DNA of 64,000 bases from Candidatus Niyogibacteria bacterium (GTDB lineage: Bacteria; Patescibacteriota; Minisyncoccia; JACROR01): NCBI GenBank assembly GCA_016214345.1, contig JACROR010000009.1, positions 66,447-130,446 of the forward strand, given 5' to 3'. The notes under the pieces were generated by a model, which did not search any database, was not told where the DNA came from, and saw only the letters and a program-made list of their open reading frames with translations. Below, in pieces: positions 6,643-61,178 of the stretch (position 1 is its first letter; each line of letters opens with the position of its first letter). The position numbers were made by a program, and so were the translations under genes.

Positions 6643-7390
6643 ATTGTGATCTTAAAATGTTGGCCTGCCTGTCCGGTAGGCGGGCCCGACGCCGAACCGT
6701 ACTTTCATGCACTATAGCAAAAATATTCGTAGTCGTCCAGTACAACGAAACCACGGCAGGAAAGCTCATGGATATAAACGCTATGAATGCCGGCAAAACA
6801 TACGTGGTTTGCAGGCGCATGGCGCGCGAAAAATCAGACTGAAAAGATTTTACTTCTCCCTTTTTTGGCGGCAAAGGGGGTTGCGCGAGGCGCATTTGCA
6901 CAAATTGCGAGATTCCCGCCAACAGCGCGAAAACCAGGCTCGGTTTTTGCAGATCAAGCAATCCGAAAAAATTCATATTTATGGTTTCCGGTCTTGTCAC
7001 AAAAAAATACAACTCATTGGCGGAAAAATCCAAACCGCGCCAAAAAAGATAATAAAGGGCTATGAGGATCGGAAGCTGAACCAAAGCCACCAAGCAACCG
7101 GACAAGGGATTAACACCATGCTCCTTGTAAAGCTCCATGGTGCGCTTAGCCTGCTCTTCTTTATTATCCTTGTACTTATCACGCAGCGCCGCCATGTGCG
7201 GCTCCAATTCTTTCATTTTAACCTGCGCGCGAACGGATTTATGCGTTAACGGAAACAGGGCGATCCTTACCAATACGGTAAGCGCCACAACCGCCAGGCC
7301 CATATCGTGTCCGGGCATGATATCCACCAAAAAAACCAGGGCGTTGAAAAGCGGACGATAAAGAAATTCGTTATAAATAAAATAAAACAT
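6572..7390 (-). CDS. yidC: Membrane protein insertase YidC/Oxa1 family (short form)
   Basis: Conserved YidC TM core (LFPLTHKSVRAQVKMKELEPHMAALRDKYKDN..., PLSGCLVALVQLPILIALYY); the 45-aa C-terminal tail runs through a dispersed palindromic repeat. Confidence 0.85.
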   Translation of the reverse strand: MFYFIYNEFLYRPLFNALVFLVDIMPGHDMGLAVVALTVLVRIALFPLTHKSVRAQVKMKELEPHMAALRDKYKDNKEEQAKRTMELYKEHGVNPLSGCLVALVQLPILIALYYLFWRGLDFSANELYFFVTRPETINMNFFGLLDLQKPSLVFALLAGISQFVQMRLAQPPLPPKKGEVKSFQSDFSRAMRLQTTYVLPAFIAFISMSFPAVVSLYWTTTNIFAIVHESTVRRRARLPDRQANILRSQYGRDRSTITTHSRNKNSDPTAHR

Positions 7391-20955: not shown

Positions 20956-21157
20956 CGATAGCCGAAGATTTCAATCTAGGCTTTAGTCCGCCGACTGGCG
21001 AATAGTTTATAGTTTTTAGAAAAATGTGCGTCACCGAGTCACGCACATTTTGCATACATAACTAAGTTGGAAGTCCGGCTTCCAAGCGTTTCAGGCGCTT
21101 ATTTTGATAGACGCCTTTTTGCTTTCTAGGGCTTGGCAAAAGTGATACCATGATGCT

Positions 21158-21607
21158 ATGGAATCTTTGAAGGTCGTTACTCATAGCGCGAAAGAAACCC
21201 AAAAATTAGGAATGCTTTTGGCTAAGGAATGTTTTAAAATTAAACAAGGCAGGCATGCTTTAGTTATCGGTTTGGAGGGAGATTTGGGTGGCGGCAAGAC
21301 CACGTTTATGCAGGGGTTTGCCCGCGGCTTGGGAATCAAAGAGAATATTACCAGCCCCACTTTTGTTTTACTTAAAATGTTTAAATTGGCGCGGAAAAAT
21401 TTTAGACGTTTGGCGCACATTGACGCTTATCGCCTGAAATCCGCGCGCGGATTGAAGCTTCTGGGGTGGGACGAACTTCTGTCAGACCCCGCCAATATAA
21501 TAGTCGTGGAGTGGGCGGACAAAGTCAGGGCTTTTATGCCGAAAGATCGCGTGCGGATCACCTTTGATTATGGTGATAAAAATGAAAGGAAAATAAATGT
21601 CAGTTAA
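21158..21607 (+). CDS. tsaE: tRNA t6A37 biosynthesis ATPase TsaE (YjeE)
   Basis: GDLGGGKTTFMQGFARGLGI...SPTFVL. Confidence 0.8.
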   Translation: MESLKVVTHSAKETQKLGMLLAKECFKIKQGRHALVIGLEGDLGGGKTTFMQGFARGLGIKENITSPTFVLLKMFKLARKNFRRLAHIDAYRLKSARGLKLLGWDELLSDPANIIVVEWADKVRAFMPKDRVRITFDYGDKNERKINVS

Positions 21608-29202: not shown

Positions 29203-30155
29203 ATTTGCGACAATGCCCGCATATTTTTGGAAAAATATACATGAAGATCGCGATCTATTAAAACCCCTTCGGCATTATCGGTATTATTTATCATGTCCAA
29301 GCCTTCTTCTTTGCCTAATATAAGCGCTGATTTTGCCAAAACGTCGGCTTTTAAGGCGTCGAGAGCCATCACTGTGGCGGCGAGAATGCCATTGTTGGCA
29401 GGCAGACCGGTGCGCGGGTCAATGATATGGTGATATGTTGCGCCATTTTTGCGCCATGTTCTTTTGGTGATGCCCGAAGTGGCTATGGCAGGCATGTTTT
29501 CGGGTATTTCAAGTTCCATTATATCATCTTCATGACAAAGCGGATTTTGCACGCCAACGCGCCATTTTTTCCCGCCATCCGTTCCTGAGAATATCATATC
29601 TCCGCCGGCCGATATCCAGAAATTTTGTGAATATTTTTTAAGTTTGCGCGCGGCCAGGTCTACGACAAAGCCCTTTCCAATCCCACCAAGGTCTATTTCA
29701 GTGTTGGCCGGCATTTTTACGGTGTGAGCCGTTTTATTTATTTTTATACCGGTGAAGGCCTGCCTACCGGACAGGCAGGCGTTATTTTCGGGAGCGAAAA
29801 TTTTGATGGGGGTGTATTGATTTTGTGACTTTTGCTCCAGGTCTTCGAAGTTTTTGTCGTATCCGAGATCTTTTAAAATATTTATCACGGCGGGATCAAA
29901 TATGCCGTTAGTGCGCGCGTGGGCGATCTTTGCTTGTTCCAGCAGTTCCATCATCATGGCGCTGGCGTTAAATTTCCGGCCTCGGGATCGGTTGAGCCGG
30001 CTTAGTTCGCTTGTCGCGCGGAAACGGCTGAATTGTTCTTCAAAATCGCAAAATATTTTTTTAATGTTTTGCAAAATAGCGCGTTCATTTTTTGAAATTT
30101 CCGCGCATATTATTATTTCCGTACCCATCGTTTTGAATTTTTCTATCGAGTTCAT
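29199..30155 (-). CDS. apbE: FAD:protein FMN transferase ApbE family
   Basis: DLGGIGKGFVVD...SAGGDMIFSG; contains an in-frame copy of the GCCTGCCT-ACCGGAC-AGGCAGGC palindrome (encodes ACLSGRQA). Confidence 0.75.
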   Translation of the reverse strand: MNSIEKFKTMGTEIIICAEISKNERAILQNIKKIFCDFEEQFSRFRATSELSRLNRSRGRKFNASAMMMELLEQAKIAHARTNGIFDPAVINILKDLGYDKNFEDLEQKSQNQYTPIKIFAPENNACLSGRQAFTGIKINKTAHTVKMPANTEIDLGGIGKGFVVDLAARKLKKYSQNFWISAGGDMIFSGTDGGKKWRVGVQNPLCHEDDIMELEIPENMPAIATSGITKRTWRKNGATYHHIIDPRTGLPANNGILAATVMALDALKADVLAKSALILGKEEGLDMINNTDNAEGVLIDRDLHVYFSKNMRALSQI

Positions 30156-33694: not shown

Positions 33695-33727
33695 CGTTTA
33701 CTTGGAAGCTTAGCTTCCAAGTAAACG
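33695..33727. repeat. Palindromic hairpin element CGTTTACTTGGAAGC-TTA-GCTTCCAAGTAAACG (15-bp stem)
   Basis: The 23-nt core ACTTGGAAGCTTAGCTTCCAAGT is repeated at 43782-43804; a variant lies at 21094-21115. Confidence 0.7.
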
Positions 33728-39319: not shown

Positions 39320-39802
39320 ATGCATTTTTTATTCCATAATTTGAAACACGATTTTAGTTTCGCCGAGCTGATAGACGCGATAGTTTTTTATATTGACGAG
39401 AATCCGCGCGATCGTTATGAGATAGTGGTGGGTACGGATTCGCGGGCGGCGGAAAAAGTTTGTTTTGTGACCGCGGTCGGCGTTTGGCGCGTGGGGCACG
39501 GCGGCAGATATTTTTGGACCAAGTCTCCGGAATCGGCGTGTCCCATTTTGCGGGATCGTATTTACAAAGAAGCCATGCAATCCATCATGCTGATGCAGGA
39601 ATTAAAAAGCGCGTTGCGGGAACGTTTAGGGGAGGAATTTTTCTGGGATAATAAGATAACCGTACACATTGACGTGGGACAAAATGGCCCGACCCGGGAA
39701 TTCATAGACGGTTTGGTAGGCATGGTGAAAGGCTTCGGTTTTGAGGCCGCGATCAAACCATATTCGTTCGGCGCATCGATTTTGGCGGATCGGCATACTT
39801 AA
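39320..39802 (+). CDS. YkuK/DUF458-family RNase H-like protein
   Basis: IVVGTDSRAAEKVCFVTAVGVWRVGHGGRYF...ITVHIDVGQNGPTREFIDGL. Confidence 0.6.
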   Translation: MHFLFHNLKHDFSFAELIDAIVFYIDENPRDRYEIVVGTDSRAAEKVCFVTAVGVWRVGHGGRYFWTKSPESACPILRDRIYKEAMQSIMLMQELKSALRERLGEEFFWDNKITVHIDVGQNGPTREFIDGLVGMVKGFGFEAAIKPYSFGASILADRHT

Positions 39803-39838
39803 ATCCAGCACCTTTTTGTTACAAAAAGATGCTGGATT
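39802..39838. repeat. Fold-back hairpin AATCCAGCACCTTTTTGT-TAC-AAAAAGATGCTGGATT related to the TIRs of the 57.6-kb MITE-like element
   Basis: 18-bp stem with 1 mismatch; same ATCCAGCACC...TTTTGT motif at 57604 and 57692, decayed copy at 42664. Confidence 0.65.
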
Positions 39839-42637: not shown

Positions 42638-42698
42638 ATTTTTCCGCTAAATTTTTAATAATAATCCAGCGCCTTTTTGTTACAAAAAATGCCGAATT

Positions 42699-43721
42699 TT
42701 ATTTCAACAACCCTTTTAATTCCAGAAATATCAATATGAACCATCCCAGTTGCAAGACGAAGAAAAGCACTAGCTGGATCACTTCCAACGCGTGATAGCG
42801 CGTAACGCTGAAATTTTCAGATACGATATTATATACATCTTCTATGGATTCCAATTTGTCTTTGATGATCGTCCGCCATTCGTCAAAGCGGAACATTTTG
42901 GCGAACATTTCGTATAATTTGGCGGAGTACCAATCGCCGATCAATTTAATTTCCCGTTCAATGACATCAAATTGCGAAATGGATTGCCCGCGCAAAGCTA
43001 TGACTTCTTTAAAGGCTTTTTCCATATCCTTGGTGCTCCATACCACAAGTCTGGTGTTCGGAGACTTTGCAATTAATTTTGAAGCCTTGGTAAGGCGTTC
43101 GGACAGATCTTGTTCCAAAATGCGGTAGCGAAGCAATTGTAGCGTGGCAATTTGAAATAGCTCTATATCCGATTGATATTCTTCGCCCGGTTCAAACATG
43201 AAAGCTCCGTCCCAGCCGATAATGGTGAGATCGTTTTGCGCGTATTTAATTTGATTTTGCACCGCATATTTTATTTCATATTCGTCCAACGCGATCCTTT
43301 CTGATTTTAAAAACCTTACTATGGCGGGGGACTGGTTGAAAAATTGTTCCGGATTTCCTTGATATCCTGATACCATGGCTACGGCATATTCTTCGCTCAT
43401 TTCAAAACTGCCGCCATGTTCTTTGCTTATTTGTTGGCAGGCATCTATCAATTTTTTCCGTAATTCAAAGGCTTCTATGGAAAAAACATCATCTATTTCA
43501 GTCGCGGCTTCTACCACTAAAATGTCCGGATGATAAGATTTGATGAGAAAATTGATATCTTTGCCGTCAATATTTTTCTTTTTTTGGCCGATGGTGTGTT
43601 GGGGCGGTATGGTGGTGGCAAAATAATGCGGCGCGCTCTGCGGCGGGAGCGTCATTACCAGCTCGCCCTTTTTGAGCTTGGAAGATTCAGCTAAAACAAA
43701 TGATATAAGCTTATGCGACAT
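42699..43721 (-). CDS. Hypothetical protein with C-terminal TM helix
   Basis: 340 aa; no confident family assignment. Confidence 0.3.
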   Translation of the reverse strand: MSHKLISFVLAESSKLKKGELVMTLPPQSAPHYFATTIPPQHTIGQKKKNIDGKDINFLIKSYHPDILVVEAATEIDDVFSIEAFELRKKLIDACQQISKEHGGSFEMSEEYAVAMVSGYQGNPEQFFNQSPAIVRFLKSERIALDEYEIKYAVQNQIKYAQNDLTIIGWDGAFMFEPGEEYQSDIELFQIATLQLLRYRILEQDLSERLTKASKLIAKSPNTRLVVWSTKDMEKAFKEVIALRGQSISQFDVIEREIKLIGDWYSAKLYEMFAKMFRFDEWRTIIKDKLESIEDVYNIVSENFSVTRYHALEVIQLVLFFVLQLGWFILIFLELKGLLK

Positions 43722-43772
43722 ATATCCTTATTTTAGCAAAATTCGGCCATTTTTGGAATTTTTAACACGGCG

Positions 43773-43813
43773 AAAACCAGCACTTGGAAGCTTAGCTTCC
43801 AAGTGCTGGTTTT
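43773..43813 (-). terminator. Strong hairpin (19-bp stem) acting as the rpmB terminator; member of the ACTTGGAAGCTTAGCTTCCAAGT repeat family
   Basis: AAAACCAGCACTTGGAAGC-TTA-GCTTCCAAGTGCTGGTTTT. Confidence 0.65.
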
Positions 43814-43928
43814 GGGAGTTTTATTCAATTCGGGCTGCGGAGAATCGGACTCCGTCCTCACCCACCCCAAGGGTGTGCGCTGCCGTTACGCTACAGCCCG
43901 TAAAACCTTGCTTGTTTAAAAAGCGCGG

Positions 43929-44153
43929 TTATTTTGCCGCCTGCCTACCGGACAGGCGGGCGCTTTTGATGTTCATTTGAAGATTTTTCTTTAAGCAACG
44001 CGTGCAGATCTTAATGCGTCCTCCCGAGGGAAGGCGAGCCCATTGCAAGTTGGGATATTTTCTTTTGTGCGGCGTGGGATTGTACTTTCCGCGTAGAAGA
44101 TTTCTTTTGCCTCCCATGCGGGAGCCTTTTTCACAAATGGCGCATTTAGTCAT
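43929..44153 (-). CDS. rpmB: 50S ribosomal protein L28
   Basis: MTKCAICEKGSRMGGKR...PNLQWARL...KICTRCLKK. The C-terminal tail (...SARLSGRQAAK) is encoded by a copy of the GCCTGCCT...AGGCAGGC palindrome. Confidence 0.75.
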   Translation of the reverse strand: MTKCAICEKGSRMGGKRNLLRGKYNPTPHKRKYPNLQWARLPSGGRIKICTRCLKKNLQMNIKSARLSGRQAAK

Positions 44154-53956: not shown

Positions 53957-54631
53957 ATGACACATACAGTTCATCCATATGCATACCGGCTTCAAACCAT
54001 ACGCGACTGGAAATCGCGCTGGGGCCGCACCAAGCAATACAAGCAATTCTTAAAAGCGAGCGTGGTTGTCCGGGAGTGGCTGGAAACGAGATTGCGCGGA
54101 ATGTTCGTAGACGAAATAGACATAGAATGCTCGCCCAACCTTTTCAGTCTGGCCATAAGGACTTCCCGTCCGGGAGTTATTATCGGCAAGGGCGGAGAGG
54201 GTATTGAGAAATTGAAAAAAGAGCTCGCCAAGAAGCTGGCACGTTTGAAATTGGGAGAGTTTAAAGAGATAAGGGTGGCGGTGGAAGAAGCAAAATTCCC
54301 GGAATCCCGATCCAGGATTATAGCGCAGATGGTGGCGGAGAGCCTGGAAAAACGTCTGCCTTTCCGGCGCGTTATGAAGCAGGTAATTGAAAGAAGTATG
54401 GCGTCCCGGGAGGTGAAGGGCATCAAAGTCGCGTTAAATGGCCGGTTAGGAGGAGCGGATATGAGCCGATCGGAGTGGTTGCGCGAAGGACAGATCCCTT
54501 TGCAGACTTTGCGCGCGGATATTGATTTTGCCAAAGAGAAAGCGCACATGCCATACGGCGATATCGGCATAAAGGTTTGGATATACCGAGGCGAGGTGTT
54601 TTCCGATAATCAAGGAGCGCAGCGACTATAA
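53957..54631 (+). CDS. rpsC: 30S ribosomal protein S3
   Basis: KH + S3-C domains. Confidence 0.95.
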   Translation: MTHTVHPYAYRLQTIRDWKSRWGRTKQYKQFLKASVVVREWLETRLRGMFVDEIDIECSPNLFSLAIRTSRPGVIIGKGGEGIEKLKKELAKKLARLKLGEFKEIRVAVEEAKFPESRSRIIAQMVAESLEKRLPFRRVMKQVIERSMASREVKGIKVALNGRLGGADMSRSEWLREGQIPLQTLRADIDFAKEKAHMPYGDIGIKVWIYRGEVFSDNQGAQRL

Positions 54632-54639
54632 TTATCGAG

Positions 54640-54737
54640 AACCCCGCCCTCTATGGGCGGTCGGTGGATGGCAAATAAAAACAGATCAGTTTTCAAATTA
54701 AGATTAGTTTATAAATAGCAATTTTGAGGGCGGGGTG
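54640..54737. mobile_element. ~98-bp MITE-like insertion or structured spacer between rpsC and rplP
   Basis: 11-bp terminal inverted repeats AACCCCGCCCTC / GAGGGCGGGGT flank a 74-nt AT-rich core; rpsC and rplP are normally adjacent. Confidence 0.4.
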
Positions 54738-54778
54738 ATGATTTTCCAAATCTCGCCTTGCTCGATAAGAAAATCAAG

Positions 54779-55192
54779 CATATGTTGTTACCCAAAAAAG
54801 TTAAACATCGCAAATGGCAGAGAATGAGAAATTTTTCCCGCAAAATAGCCAGCCGGGGAACGACTGTTGCTTTTGGAAGTTTCGGTCTTAAAACCGATGA
54901 CGCGTACGAAATTTCTTCCCGGCAGATAGAGGCGGCCCGTAAAACCATCACCCGTTATGTGCAGAAAACCGGCAGAATGTGGATCCGCATTTTTCCCGAT
55001 AAGCCTTTAACCAGCAAACCGAATGTGCGCATGGGCAAGGGCAAGGGGGATCCGGTAGGATATGTCGCCGTGGTTCAGCCCGGGCAAGTTTTGTTTGAAA
55101 TAGATGGAATTTCAATAGAGCTGGCCAAAGAAGCGCTTCGTAAGGCGGGAAGCAAGCTTCCGGTAAAAACTAAGTTCGTGGTACGAGTATGA
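54779..55192 (+). CDS. rplP: 50S ribosomal protein L16
   Basis: Start at [11 protein letters not shown]; the ORF track begins 21 nt earlier, inside the inserted element. Confidence 0.93.
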
Positions 55193-55425
55193 AAATAAAA
55201 GAATTACGGCAAAAATCCGAAGCGGAGCTTCAAAATCTGCTGGACAAATCAAGGGATCGGCTGATACAATTCAAATTTAACGTTTCTTTGGGCAAAGAAA
55301 AGAATGTTAAAGAAGCCAGGACGCTGCGAAGAGATATCGCGCGTATTTTTACCCTGTTAAATCCGCCAAAGGCGGTGCGGAGCAATTTAACAGGGTTAAC
55401 CATTATTAATCAATCCGAAAAATAA
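55189..55425 (+). CDS. rpmC: 50S ribosomal protein L29
   Basis: [18 protein letters not shown]... Confidence 0.9.
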
Positions 55426-56878: not shown

Positions 56879-56955
56879 TCCCGTTAAATTGTCCGGCAAG
56901 GACAGACACCGGCTTCGCCGGATTTAACAGGGTGAAAATATTTTAATAAATTAGC

Positions 56956-57150: not shown

Positions 57151-57540
57151 ATGGATACCATATCTGACATGTTAATAAGGATCAAGAACGCGCAAGCCGT
57201 CAAAAAAGACAGCGTGGAAGTTCCGCATTCCAAATTAAGAATGGAAATAGCCAAAATTTTGCAAACCCGCGGCTTCATAGGAGAAATAGCCAAACGCGGC
57301 AAAAAATTGCGCAAAAGCATCAGCATTAATTTGGCGTACGGCGAGGATGGAGCGGGTAAAATAAACGGATTACGCCGTTTATCCAAATTGTCAAAGCGAG
57401 TTTATAAATCAGCGCGTGAATTGCGTCCCGTGCGTAATGGTACCGGCATGGCTATAATTTCCACTTCTAAGGGTTTGGTGACCGATGACGAGGCGCGTAA
57501 GAAGCACTTGGGAGGCGAGGTATTTTTTGAAATTTGGTAA
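57151..57540 (+). CDS. rpsH: 30S ribosomal protein S8
   Basis: Conserved S8 sequence. Confidence 0.95.
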   Translation: MDTISDMLIRIKNAQAVKKDSVEVPHSKLRMEIAKILQTRGFIGEIAKRGKKLRKSISINLAYGEDGAGKINGLRRLSKLSKRVYKSARELRPVRNGTGMAIISTSKGLVTDDEARKKHLGGEVFFEIW

Positions 57541-57603
57541 TGGCTTGGCTCATCATTTTTGTTCCGCTTTTGAGCGAGGCAAAAATGACGATTGCCAAAC
57601 ATT

Positions 57604-57709
57604 ATCCAGCACCACTTTTGTATAGTGGCGCGAAGTAGTAAAATATTGATTTAAAGTCAGAATTAAAGTAAATTTAAGTAATTATTATTTAACAAAAGTG
57701 GTGCTGGAT
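57604..57709. mobile_element. ~106-bp MITE-like element inserted between rpsH and rplF
   Basis: Perfect 18-bp terminal inverted repeats ATCCAGCACCACTTTTGT / ACAAAAGTGGTGCTGGAT flank a 70-nt AT-rich core; related fold-back copies at 39802-39838 and 42664-42700. Confidence 0.5.
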
Positions 57710-57752
57710 GCGCGATTTTCAAAGTCTCGCTCCGCTCGCTAAGAAAATCGGC

Positions 57753-58295
57753 ATGAGCAGAATAGGCAAAAAACCAATAACCATTCCAAGCGGCGTCACG
57801 GTTGCCGTAGAGGACGGCATGGTGCGAGTGAAGGGTCCGAAAGGAAATCTGTCCCGGCAATTTAAAGATGACATAAATATCGCGGTTGCGGACAAGGAAG
57901 TTGTTTGCAGCGTGCGAAAAGATTCCAAGTTGTCTTTTATTTTGTGGGGCACCTACGCTTCGCATATTAAAAATATGATAGAAGGCGTTGCCAACGGTTT
58001 TGAAAAAAAATTGGAAATAGAGGGCATCGGATACAAGGCAAAAGAGGAGAACGGTAAATTAATTTTGAATCTTGGATTTTCGCATCCCGTGGAAGTGGCA
58101 GCTCCGGCGGGAATAAAATTTACGGTGGTAAAAAATCTTATTACGGTTTCCGGAATTGACAAAGAGCTGGTGGGAGAAATGGCTGCGAAAATTCGCGCCC
58201 ACAAAAAGCCCGACCCGTATAAAGGCAAAGGAATCCATTATTTAGGCGAAGTTATCAGAAGGAAGGCCGGCAAGAAAGCCGCGGCATCCGCGTAA
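57753..58295 (+). CDS. rplF: 50S ribosomal protein L6
   Basis: Start at MSRIGKKPITIP; the ORF-track start (57708) runs into the inserted element. Confidence 0.93.
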   Translation: MSRIGKKPITIPSGVTVAVEDGMVRVKGPKGNLSRQFKDDINIAVADKEVVCSVRKDSKLSFILWGTYASHIKNMIEGVANGFEKKLEIEGIGYKAKEENGKLILNLGFSHPVEVAAPAGIKFTVVKNLITVSGIDKELVGEMAAKIRAHKKPDPYKGKGIHYLGEVIRRKAGKKAAASA

Positions 58296-58684: not shown

Positions 58685-59209
58685 ATGGCGTTTGAGGGAA
58701 AAAAATCAAAAAATCGTTTTGCGGCGAAAGATGGCGCGAAATTCACGGAGTTTGACCAAAAGATGATAGATCTGCGGAGAGTGGCGAGAGTCGTGTCCGG
58801 AGGAAGGCGTTTTAATTTCCGAGCCACGCTGATAATCGGAGACCGTCACGGCCGTGTCGGTTTAGGCATGGGCAAGGGCGCGGATACGGCAATATCCATA
58901 GACAAGGCCTTTCGAGACGCCAAAAAACATTTAATTTCCATTCCGATCACGAAAGACGGCTCCATCCCTCATGAGGTGTCTGCCAAATTCGGGCCGGGAC
59001 ATATTTTGATGCGTCCGGCGGTGGAGGGAAGAGGTATCGTGGCGGGAAGCGCGGTACGCGTGATATGCGACTTGGGAGGGATAAGGAACATAACCGCCAA
59101 AGTTTTATCCCATACCAAAAATAAGATCAATAATGCAAAGGCCACGATAGAAGCGTTAAAAAAATTTAAATATGCAACTGCACGAACTGCGTCCAACAAC
59201 AAAAAATAA
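58685..59209 (+). CDS. rpsE: 30S ribosomal protein S5
   Basis: Conserved S5 sequence. Confidence 0.95.
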   Translation: MAFEGKKSKNRFAAKDGAKFTEFDQKMIDLRRVARVVSGGRRFNFRATLIIGDRHGRVGLGMGKGADTAISIDKAFRDAKKHLISIPITKDGSIPHEVSAKFGPGHILMRPAVEGRGIVAGSAVRVICDLGGIRNITAKVLSHTKNKINNAKATIEALKKFKYATARTASNNKK

Positions 59210-59606
59210 GTCTAAGAAACGCGTAGGCCGCGGCGGGAAACGCGGTACTTTTTCGGGGCGCGGCACTAAAGGCCAAAAAGCCAGAGCCGGTCATAGAATG
59301 CGTCCGGAATTACGCGATATTTTAAAGAAATTACCCAAAAAGCGCGGTTATCGCACTCCCTCCATTCAGGACAAGCCCGCGGTGATCAACTTGCAGGTTT
59401 TAAATCAGCATTATAAGGATTCTGAAACGGTGAGCCCGAAGACTTTGGATGAAAAAGGATTGTTAAAATTAGTAGGGGGAAGGCGCCAATCGGTTAAAAT
59501 TTTGGGATCAGGAGAACTGTCTAAAAAATTATTGGTGTCTAAATGCCAGATTTCCAAATCAGCGAAAGCGGCCGTTGAAAAAGCCGGAGGCAGTGTTAGG
59601 TCATAG
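59172..59606 (+). CDS. rplO: 50S ribosomal protein L15 (no L30 gene precedes it)
   Basis: Conserved L15 N-terminus; overlaps the rpsE 3' end by 38 nt. Confidence 0.9.
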   Translation: MQLHELRPTTKNKSKKRVGRGGKRGTFSGRGTKGQKARAGHRMRPELRDILKKLPKKRGYRTPSIQDKPAVINLQVLNQHYKDSETVSPKTLDEKGLLKLVGGRRQSVKILGSGELSKKLLVSKCQISKSAKAAVEKAGGSVRS

Positions 59607-59654
59607 GTTTTAGTCCGCCAGCTGGCGGATAGGTTATAGATAGATTTATATTTC

Positions 59655-60968: not shown

Positions 60969-61178
60969 TTTTTTATGCGCGTAAATGATATAATATATTT
61001 TATGGATATTGAATTACAAAACTCTTATGCTCCAAAATTGATTTTTTCATCAAGCAAGGGGGAGCATTTACAACCCCCCTATTTTAGAAAGGTCGCTATC
61101 GCGACCCAAATAGAAACCCCCTTGATTGCTGAAAAAATTAATTTCTCCGCATTTAACGGAGTTTTATAATTCAAAATT

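Follow-up and report, generated by a model that had tools for sequence, protein, structure and literature searches.

A three-hairpin element in the rpsH-rplF spacer of a Candidatus Niyogibacteria genome and the palindromic family to which it probably belongs

The spc ribosomal-protein operon of a Candidatus Niyogibacteria bacterium carries a perfect inverted repeat between rpsH and rplF, within a 64,000-nt stretch of contig JACROR010000009.1 that is hereafter called the window. The copy in the window is probably one member of a REPIN/MITE-like (MITE, miniature inverted-repeat transposable element) palindromic family that is distributed over several Paceibacteria and spreads without target-site duplication, and this copy would be folded and maintained by selection. 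This reading is based on the hairpin anatomy of the spacer, its presence or absence in close relatives, the slow and compensatory change of its sequence, and the dispersed copies with nearly the same arms in ribosomal-protein operons, stable RNAs and type IV pilin genes.

The rpsH-rplF spacer is composed of three hairpins

The spacer between rpsH and rplF is 212 nt long (57541-57752), and the whole of it consists of three consecutive hairpins, designated modules A, B and C (Table 1). Module B contains the inverted repeat, in which ATCCAGCACCACTTTTGT at 57604-57621 and its exact reverse complement at 57692-57709 enclose an AT-rich core of 70 nt. The original prediction, made from the sequence of the window alone, had described these perfect 18-bp terminal repeats, and they were confirmed: both arms are exact, and shuffles of the window gave 0.06 matches to the arm with up to three mismatches allowed. 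The inverted repeat is real and far above chance. It was also correctly noted that rpsH and rplF normally abut, as the S8-L6 spacers of 80 other genomes were mostly 1-50 nt, compared with 212 nt in the window.

RNA folding gave −74 kcal/mol for the whole spacer (z = −5.7), −35.3 kcal/mol for hairpin B alone (z = −6.8) and −26.2 kcal/mol for hairpin A (z = −5.9), and the core of module B had no structure of its own (z = +1.1). In the fold, the rpsH stop codon UAA (57538-57540) pairs with the base of hairpin A, and hairpin C ends 2 nt ahead of the rplF ATG. The loop of module A, GAGCGAG, is complementary to CTCGCTC in the loop of module C. Pairing of A with the distant loop of module C was considered, with 8-10 of 11 pairs formed across copies, but it was rejected because a compensatory change between the window and the relative L084 favours the local stem of A (three-digit labels of this kind denote the sequences compared here, not ribosomal proteins).

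The right arm of module B creates an ATG at 57708 (GTG in L084) that is in frame with rplF and would add an N-terminal extension of 15 amino acids, MRDFQSLAPLAKKIG (57708-57752; L084 322-366). All three substitutions between the window and L084 in this frame are synonymous, and gene callers report an L6 protein of 195 amino acids. As a general feature, however, module C was rejected as an N-terminal extension of L6, because stop codons close the frame in the copies of L102, L115, L133 and L029.

Table 1. Genes, modules and family members in the window
Feature	Positions	Strand	Description
rpsH (ribosomal protein S8)	57151..57540	+	From the list of open reading frames; Pfam Ribosomal_S8 on the identical gene of L001
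Module A	57541..57604	+	Hairpin, 67 nt including the rpsH stop codon; stem CATCATTTTTG / CAAAAATGACG; from the fold
Module B, left arm	57604..57621	+	Left terminal repeat of the original prediction; invariant family 15-mer CCAGCACCACTTTTG at 57606-57620
Module B, core	57622..57691	+	AT-rich loop; 72 nt between the 15-mers, within the family peak of 71-74 nt
Module B, right arm	57692..57709	+	ACAAAAGTGGTGCTGGAT
Module C	57710..57752	+	8-bp stem CGATTTTC / GAAAATCG, 57713-57720 / 57743-57750; loop motif TCGCTNNGCTC conserved
rplF (ribosomal protein L6)	57753..58295	+	True start ATG 57753, MSRIGKKPI; identical 180-aa protein found, 100% identity
Second composite, rpsC-rplP spacer	54603..54776	+	Same architecture, A'-B'-C'; rplP ATG at 54782
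A'	54603-54638	+	Small hairpin
B'	54641-54651 and 54726-54736	+	Arms ACCCCGCCCTC and GAGGGCGGGGT; 74-nt AT-rich loop
C'	54739-54776	+	Hairpin homologous to C; ends 5 nt ahead of the rplP ATG
Tight family member	39802..39838	.	Stem 17-18 bp, loop 2-3 nt; begins at the last stop-codon base of an RNaseH-like gene, 39320-39802
Tight family member, right arm decayed	42663..42700	-	Between convergent genes, at the 3′ end of gene 42699-43721 (-); folds on the - strand only

Filled and empty sites in close relatives

A protein search with L6 returned three close clusters, with 100, 94 and 91% identity, the identical protein being annotated to a Candidatus Niyogibacteria metagenome-assembled genome. 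Contig scanning with L6 had given distant relatives only (at most 61% identity), and the close sites were obtained through the protein search and contig look-up. In L082, from Hainich groundwater (L6 91%), DNA identity across the operon is approximately 85% and the S8-L6 spacer is only 13 nt long, which represents an empty site. The whole 212-nt block is present in L084 (L6 94%) and in the Logan contig L001, which represent filled sites, so that the comparison of filled and empty sites proposed in the original prediction could be made and showed both states. Conservation at this exact site across distant relatives, which had been set against mobility there, was not seen: among the relatives compared, the element at the S8-L6 site is confined to the two closest, L001 and L084.

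Because the L082 spacer is 13 nt and the full block is present in L001 and L084, the indel comprises A, B and C together and not the 106-nt repeat. The element had been taken to be 106 nt long; comparison with L082 gives instead a 212-nt insertion (57541-57752) with three hairpins. If the original spc spacer was approximately 13 nt, the position of A against the rpsH stop codon and of C against the rplF start codon needs no functional explanation.

Between the window and L084, 21 of the 212 spacer positions differ. In the stems, four compensatory pairs were observed, two in A and two in B, the latter placed at either end of the stem. Two further one-sided changes, both in A, preserve pairing; A and B contain no disruptive change, and in module C one pair is lost. 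At four-fold degenerate sites of the flanking rpsH, rplF and rplR, 40 of 110 positions differ (36%), so that divergence of the spacer is approximately 3.6-fold lower (p = 2.7e-8). The 70-nt core alone, with six differences, is also below the four-fold sites (p = 1.9e-5), and its AT-rich part differs at only 2 of 51 positions. Since the spacer changes approximately 3.6 times more slowly than this neutral proxy, the comparison indicates that the window copy is kept by purifying selection. Together with the compensatory stem changes, this means that the copy is not simply decaying junk.

The core of module B also contains the promoter-like hexamers TTGATT (57646-57651) and TAAATT (57669-57674), read by eye, which are separated by a 17-nt gap and are unchanged in L084. 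They would fit an operon-splitting cassette, in which A ends or stabilises the rpsH transcript, a core promoter drives rplF and the downstream genes, and C becomes a new 5′ leader. The near-absence of change in the AT-rich part of the core agrees with such a cassette, and Correia elements are known to create promoters (PMC2649163). We nevertheless consider it very unlikely. The hexamers match at 8 of 12 positions, below the threshold of the consensus scan, in a group whose promoters are uncharacterised, and their conservation is uninformative given so few changes in this part of the core. Moreover, hairpin A has no U-tract, and other cores of the family share no such motif, many of them lying within ribosomal RNA (rRNA), where a promoter would be senseless.

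A hairpin family with nearly invariant arms in metagenomes

Metagenomic contigs were scanned with the pattern CCAGCACCACTTTTG-N60-90-CAAAAGTGGTGCTGG, in which the arms are exact by design. At least 60 contigs with exact 15-nt arms were found, holding 53 distinct elements. The 15-bp stem of the family, CCAGCACCACUUUUG / CAAAAGUGGUGCUGG, is nearly invariant. The two bases outside the arms covary in inverted form (AT/AT, AC/GT and GC/GC), and these outer pairs are Watson-Crick in 49/53 and 40/53 elements, shuffles reaching at most 37 and 40. Pairing extends to the first inner base (37/51) and no further, giving a helix of 18-19 bp. Variant arms are altered on both sides, for example, CCAGCACCAATTTTG / CAAAATTGGTGCTGG. 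In total, the stems contain 841 Watson-Crick pairs and very few G·U pairs, 11 in the sense and 13 in the antisense orientation. Such strictly Watson-Crick, strand-symmetric stems argue for a constraint that goes beyond RNA structure.

Loop length peaks at 71-74 nt (30 of 51 elements), and copies found without a length constraint have loops that are either tight (0-38 nt) or again approximately 70-82 nt, so that tight and long forms coexist across the wider family. The loops are mostly unrelated in sequence. The cores were also considered as structured RNAs, which was rejected with a mean z of only approximately −0.6, clear structure being found only in rRNA-borne cores. The arms occur nearly always in hairpin-forming pairs and very seldom singly, with a density of approximately one per 15-20 kb.

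Module C accompanies B-type arms twice in the window, twice in L102, and in L109, L115, L133, L125, L029, L024 and L005. Its stems covary, for example, GATTTTC / GAAAATC, AGATTTA / TAAATCT and GATTTTTA / TAAAAATC. Composites with variant arms were found in named GTDB genomes, including a Nomurabacteria genome (L029), UBA3527 (L005), L024 and L047. The best named relatives differ from locus to locus and include Nomura-, Kaiser-, Taylor- and Niyogibacteria and other Paceibacterota, and the arms are common to lineages whose ribosomal proteins are only approximately 50% identical. The family of this genome, as it had been called, does exist there, but it is far wider, extending over several Paceibacteria lineages and into rRNA, RNase P RNA and pilin genes.

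Rfam contained no match to the element at the gathering score and none at E ≤ 1 save a spurious match to a miRNA precursor. In the literature searched, no description was found of this motif, or of MITE, REP or Rickettsia-type palindromic elements in Patescibacteria. The hairpin family has apparently not been described until now.

Copies in ribosomal-protein and RNA-polymerase operons

Besides the S8-L6 junction of the window, copies were located at the L15-secY junction and the next one (L102), at L14-L24 (L109), upstream of S14 (L113), and at S3-L16 (L115), S5-L15 (L133) and S4-rpoA (L112). The junction differs in each lineage, and most operon copies are flanked by A-type and C-type modules.

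In three of these sequences, a small open reading frame (ORF; MQNYR.. or MKNYL.., 33-40 amino acids) starts in the loop (L102 3222-3372 and 5403-5559, L115 4043-4186, and L133 184-326). The frame continues across the right arm (SKVVLG/D) and module C to a stop approximately 7-12 nt ahead of the downstream start codon, and it looks like a translational-coupling relay. Such a loop-borne ORF was rejected for the window copy, as there is no start codon in the window or L084.

Long S8-L6 spacers of 80-308 nt were also observed in other Patescibacteria (L006 5639-5816, L016 3974-4283, L013 9881-10001, L007, L008, L012 and L029), filled by long hairpins of unrelated sequence. One example, in a Giovannonibacteria genome, is CCCCGTTAGAAAT...ATTTCTAACGGGG. 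Different hairpin elements have invaded the S8-L6 junction on several occasions.

Copies in stable RNAs

Stable RNA genes hold many copies. In 16S rRNA, copies were found at helix 6 (L105 and L107) and at another site (L126), and in 5S rRNA at the terminal hairpin (L122), the helices of both RNAs being assigned by reading the flanks by eye against the Escherichia coli genes. For 23S rRNA, three copies lie within the first 1300 positions in L098 and three in L119, and L101 has copies in the 3′ domain and in the 23S-5S spacer. Others lie in leaders or spacers of rRNA operons (L088, L134 and L111), downstream of a transfer RNA (tRNA) gene (L103 and L129) or approximately 170 nt upstream of one (L127). 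In RNase P RNA (L141 and L120), the P3 position, the P16/P17 position and the 3′ end are occupied.

Covariance-model alignment of the L119 23S rRNA placed the hairpins in the position of native helices: one stands for helix 9 (+87 nt), one for a small hairpin around position 230 of the model (+53 nt) and one for the native helix 273-307. Insertion at helix tips was borne out in L119 (helix 9 and the two other sites), L098, L101, L105, L126 and L122. Orthologous sites may be tight in one organism and long in another, as in L119_528 and L098_1192, or L120 and L141.

The RNase P RNA with three family hairpins (L141 11434-11894; L120 1124-1545) scored 68.8 bits against an Rfam threshold of 100 bits, and the model mis-paired arms of different hairpins as P1. 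In these lineages, standard annotation probably misses RNase P RNA and rRNA genes that carry family insertions.

Copies at type IV pilin genes

At approximately 15 loci, the right arm followed by GTTTAC encodes KSGAGFT of the prepilin motif KSGAGFT(L/I)IE, the right arm itself encoding KSGAG. The loop contains the start codon and leader of these genes, and the left arm falls in the 5′ untranslated region. L143 contains three tandem pilin genes, each with its own hairpin, one of them a compensatory variant; the first of these hairpins is cut by the contig end, and its right arm alone is seen. The N-terminal methylation motif of Pfam was above threshold in two of four pilins tested and below it in the other two. 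In one further pilin gene (L137 2081-2330), a tight fold-back of the motif lies in the leader and is followed by four tandem 33-nt units, (RKSGAGFTLLA)n, and then by the mature GFTLIELLVV; upstream lies a vestigial start, MKQSGFTQHHF, whose QHHF is encoded by the left arm.

The overlap of the motif with the coding sequence of pilin leaders would be compatible with a switch based on DNA inversion, with a paired DNA-uptake sequence or with an autoregulatory leader specific to L6. Variable cores between conserved inverted repeats also recall a global-invertase regulon, and DNA-uptake sequences often form inverted pairs. All three are nonetheless extremely unlikely. No inversion of the core was seen among related loci with matching flanks, the orthologous pairs all having the same relative orientation of core and flank, although this is a weak test, as assemblies and not reads were compared. 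A distance of 70 bp is very short for recombinase synapsis. As for uptake, the motif is nearly never single, and its density is far from the expected one per kb or so. The element is not an L6-specific leader, because a different operon junction is occupied in each lineage; moreover, most relatives have no long S8-L6 spacer. The element also has no Rfam match.

Spread of whole elements and search for a mobilising agent

Some copies are related over their full length. A 103-nt element occurs with 100% identity in both L093 and L117, contigs from a single assembly, in flanks without BLAST-detectable similarity; by eye, approximately 10-17 nt beside the arms are about 70% alike. Core subfamilies link sites at the 23S 5′ part, the 23S 3′ part and the 16S rRNA in three organisms. 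Core subfamilies also link two 23S sites (L098), two operon junctions (L102), and L125 with L128.

No target-site duplication was found at the flanks of the 53 unique copies, where the flanking dinucleotides are inverted and not direct and where neither pairing nor a repeat was seen further out, and the rRNA hairpins replace consensus helices likewise without target duplications. Viral contigs contained neither the long nor the tight form. A transposase with matching terminal repeats, which the original prediction had suggested looking for, was found neither beside the window hairpins nor in 1.8 Mb of locus DNA, which is a small part of each genome; the genes next to the window hairpins encode only RNaseH-like, HtrA, PEBP and TsaE domains according to Pfam. 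Among 144 loci, no arm pair flanks a gene-sized interval.

Taken as a classical 106-bp MITE, the window copy would be a deletion derivative of an insertion sequence, moved in trans by a DDE transposase that acts on the 18-bp repeats and leaves target-site duplications. The perfect terminal repeats, the AT-rich core, the small non-coding body (106 nt, under ~300 bp), the polymorphic presence between relatives and the homologous full-length copies at non-orthologous sites (L093/L117, L125/L128 and the rRNA subfamilies) are all in line with this. We regard it as very improbable, since the indel covers A, B and C and not B alone, the 53 unique copies have no direct repeats and the bases outside them are inverted, and most family cores are unrelated in sequence. 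At the pilin copies, furthermore, GTTTAC is the same at every locus, and on the gene side it codes for a portion of the pilin motif. The failure to find a transposase in the DNA searched and the absence of arm pairs around gene-sized intervals point the same way. Of the original description as a MITE-like mobile family, the dispersed non-coding hairpins and their presence/absence polymorphism were retained; no target duplication was found, no transposase was present in the DNA searched, and most loops are unrelated in sequence.

Origin and possible fate of the window copy

Under the REPIN/MITE-like reading, the family would spread without target-site duplication via some agent. Copies would persist where an extra stable hairpin is tolerated, namely, at the tips of peripheral helices of rRNA and RNase P RNA, in short spacers between the cistrons of highly expressed operons, at gene 3′ ends and at pilin 5′ ends. 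The window copy would be co-transcribed with the spc operon and form three local hairpins between the rpsH stop and the rplF start, and selection would now preserve both the pairing of the stems and the sequence itself. The long perfect helix would most likely be handled as double-stranded RNA (dsRNA), being either cut by an RNase III-type enzyme or used as a stabilising hairpin at a 3′ or 5′ end. Translation of rplF would then start from its own AUG, 2 nt past hairpin C.

Several observations weigh against this reading. With L082 as the one empty relative, the block was probably inserted, although its loss in L082 would be conceivable. There is no target-site duplication of the kind that classical transposition would leave, and tblastn with an IS200 TnpA query gave no match in the 1.8 Mb, which is a small part of each genome. 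A signature of RNase III (rnc) was likewise absent from the examined locus DNA. Loops that are mostly unrelated in sequence are unusual for copy-and-paste elements, and selection acting on RNA structure alone would not be expected to make G·U pairs rare and free of strand bias. The rate of change of the window copy, loop included, is as low as that of non-synonymous sites, which argues for a host-level function; so does the clustering of copies in RNA genes and operons with high expression. At pilin genes, the loop supplies a functional start codon and leader, which is unexpected of an inserted parasite. Pure parasitism thus leaves three things unexplained: selection that extends to the unstructured AU-rich loop, copies in the RNAs of highest expression, and the pilin start codons. 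These leave room for a host-level role; the helix might be recognised by a dsRNA factor, serve as an intercistronic processing or stabilising site, or act as a stem for translational control.

An unlikely but conceivable alternative is a host-recruited RNA module, in which the 15-bp helix is the site of a sequence-specific protein of the RNase III/Mini-III type or a dsRNA-binding factor. The protein would mark the hairpins of rRNA, RNase P RNA, and ribosomal-protein and pilin mRNAs for excision, processing or co-regulation, and mobility would be secondary or take place at the RNA level. Such a module would account for a stem sequence conserved across lineages with ribosomal proteins as divergent as stated above, where the flanking pairs merely covary. 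It would also suit the enrichment of copies in abundant RNAs, with several copies replacing native consensus helices, the selection on the window copy with its loop, and the loop length held at 71-74 nt. Short ORF-less insertions in rRNA of candidate phyla radiation (CPR) bacteria have already been suspected to be intervening sequences excised by RNase III (PMC11270868). On the other hand, no candidate protein was identified, and a cut in the stem of pilin mRNAs would remove the start codon. The scarcity of G·U pairs and the lack of strand bias are better matched by constraint at the DNA level, or acting on both strands, than by constraint on RNA only, and the sporadic presence or absence at each junction argues against an essential role.

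It also seems doubtful that the 15-bp helix is a shared address tag for a dedicated Paceibacteria factor, whether an excising dsRNA endonuclease or RNA-level copying machinery. If it were, the tag would tie together the maturation of rRNA, 5S rRNA and RNase P RNA, the processing of ribosomal-protein mRNA and the translation of type IV pilins. It would also explain the bias towards abundant RNAs, the replacement of helix tips, the loop of approximately 72 nt and the selection on single copies.

Other family members and hairpin repeats in the window

Four family copies were seen in the window (Table 1). The second composite lies in the rpsC-rplP spacer, which is 150 nt long in the window compared with 16 nt in L082, from which this composite is absent. 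The sequence TCTCGCYYYGCTCGMTAAGAAAATC occurs in the window only in C and C', and the arm type of B' also lies beside a C module in L024. On the minus strand, A' was detected as a C-type hairpin. As A' is an inverted C-type module, the composite is a large imperfect palindrome made of an inverted C, B and C.

The other two copies are tight. The original prediction had placed the same terminal repeat at 39802-39838; the relationship holds through the shared ATCCAGCRCC, but the sequence is not identical, the arm ATCCAGCACC-TTTTTGT matching the B arm at 16 of 18 positions with one indel and containing one C·A mismatch on the + strand. The copy reported at 42664-42700 is indeed decayed in its right arm. 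Rather than having the same repeat as module B, it resembles the 39802 copy, with 25 of 26 positions alike over the left arm and loop. Exact ATCCAGCRCC is restricted in the window to module B and these two copies, with four matches, and shuffles gave a mean of 5.8 even with one mismatch allowed. A near-match at 21349-21366 lies within the tsaE coding sequence and was rejected as a chance match.

The window genome carries several hairpin-repeat families. A second one, with arms CCC(T)GTTAAAT / ATTTAACAGGG, is found at 55348-55399 (3′ end of rpmC) and at 56879-56955 (rplE-rpsN spacer). Its two copies have opposite orientations and are identical at 30 of 34 positions, and neither is present in L082. 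The rpmC copy is a 48-nt in-frame insertion that adds 16 codons, lengthening L29 from 61 to 78 amino acids, and it may be flanked by TTACC and TTAACC, the empty site having a single TTAACC. A 36-nt motif with an internal palindrome, TAGGYTTTAGTCCGCC..GGCGRATAGKTTATAG, occurs with 86% identity at 59604-59639 (rplO-secY) and at 20977-21012 (between divergent genes). The rplO-secY spacer is 48 nt in the window compared with 12 nt in L082, and the motif could be a promoter or operator or a small repeat.

Downstream of secY, at 61035-61144 in a spacer of 230 nt, there is a 28-nt inverted repeat with 89% complementarity and a 54-nt core. L082 has approximately 760 nt here instead, including an extra adenylate kinase gene. 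The palindrome GCCTGCCTGTCCGGTAGGCGGGC was found three times (6663-6686, 29757-29781 and 43939-43962), and ACTTGGAAGCTTAGCTTCCAAGT twice (33695-33727 and 43763-43823), the second time with outer arms AACCAGCAC and just downstream of tRNA-Pro. At 58685-59606, rplO comes immediately after rpsE, the rpmD (L30) gene being absent from between them, and the two ORFs overlap by 38 nt. The absence of rpmD is usual in CPR bacteria.

Comparison with known systems

Several known systems resemble the family in part. REPINs consist of invariant inverted 16-mers around a less conserved spacer of constrained length and show compensatory changes (PMC3116915). The present family shares with them two invariant inverted ends of approximately 15-16 nt, a variable spacer constrained in length, a long hairpin that could form in single-stranded DNA or RNA, and compensatory changes. 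It also lacks target duplications, leaves singlet or tight remnants and occupies spacers, including those inside operons. It differs in that no RAYT, the cognate Y1/HUH transposase whose gene the repeats usually flank in REPIN systems, was found in the DNA covered, a small part of each genome, that there is no GTAG-type 5′ tetranucleotide, that the arm is not itself palindromic, and that the same arm sequence occurs across deeply diverged lineages. Unlike REPINs, moreover, it is not strictly extragenic, since it lies inside rRNA, 5S and RNase P RNA genes and overlaps pilin coding sequence.

Short uncharacterised insertions in CPR rRNA genes are probably intervening sequences (PMC11270868). The hairpins described here, approximately 50-105 nt long, resemble them in lying at peripheral helix tips, including helix 9, a classical site, and in being sporadic, as if acquired laterally. 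In contrast to intervening sequences, the window copy is in an mRNA spacer, and one stem sequence recurs at many sites in several RNA species. BOX elements of Streptococcus pneumoniae are built of boxA, boxB and boxC modules (PMC3049150). Likeness lies in the modular A-B-C structure with partly complementary outer modules, a middle module that also occurs alone, the intergenic position, transcription (which we infer here) and strong folding. There is no sequence relationship, however, A being an inverted C and B a variable-loop hairpin instead of a tandem box. Correia elements (CREE/NEMIS) of Neisseria are transcribed together with adjacent genes, their repeats form a hairpin that is either open to RNase III cleavage or protected from it, and some create promoters (PMC2649163, PMC2229807). 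They are likewise elements of approximately 100-150 bp with terminal inverted repeats, but their 26-bp repeats, TA target duplication and conserved core with an integration host factor site were not seen in the family.

Two further systems may be compared. Ogata and co-workers are said to have described, in 2000, palindromic elements of Rickettsia, a reduced genome, that lie in RNA genes and in frame in protein genes. Similarly, the family arms are read in pilin leaders, and a related hairpin adds codons to rpmC; unlike here, the Rickettsia families are conserved over their full length, and no sequence relationship exists. Intercistronic RNase III sites are known from the early mRNA of phage T7 and from rplL-rpoB of E. 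coli; these are fixed, irregular hairpins and are not dispersed. The window copy likewise forms a long hairpin between two genes of a strongly expressed operon, where cleavage would separate and stabilise the messages on either side; for this family, such cleavage is a supposition.

The kind of element is thus known, from REPINs, MITEs and intervening sequences. The family is set apart by an arm sequence common to deep lineages, by loops of fixed length and variable sequence, and by its sites at the helix tips of four stable RNAs, in operon spacers and at pilin 5′ ends.

Implications

The motif provides a sequence definition for at least part of the short, ORF-less and unexplained insertions in CPR rRNA, and it reveals that one element type invades ribosomal-protein operons, RNase P RNA, 5S rRNA and pilin genes as well. 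The hairpins inflate or fragment gene models of rRNA and RNase P RNA, the RNase P RNA of L141 falling below the Rfam threshold, and they mislead gene callers, by which rplF and rpmC were lengthened and the end of rpsC was shifted. Near-invariant arms, fixed loop length and a Watson-Crick stem point to a conserved protein partner, which may be a RAYT-like transposase or a dsRNA-processing enzyme, and the motif is a handle for finding it by co-occurrence. Repeats were not expected in ultra-small, gene-dense genomes; yet the essential operons of this one hold several hairpin insertions that are missing in an 85%-identical relative.

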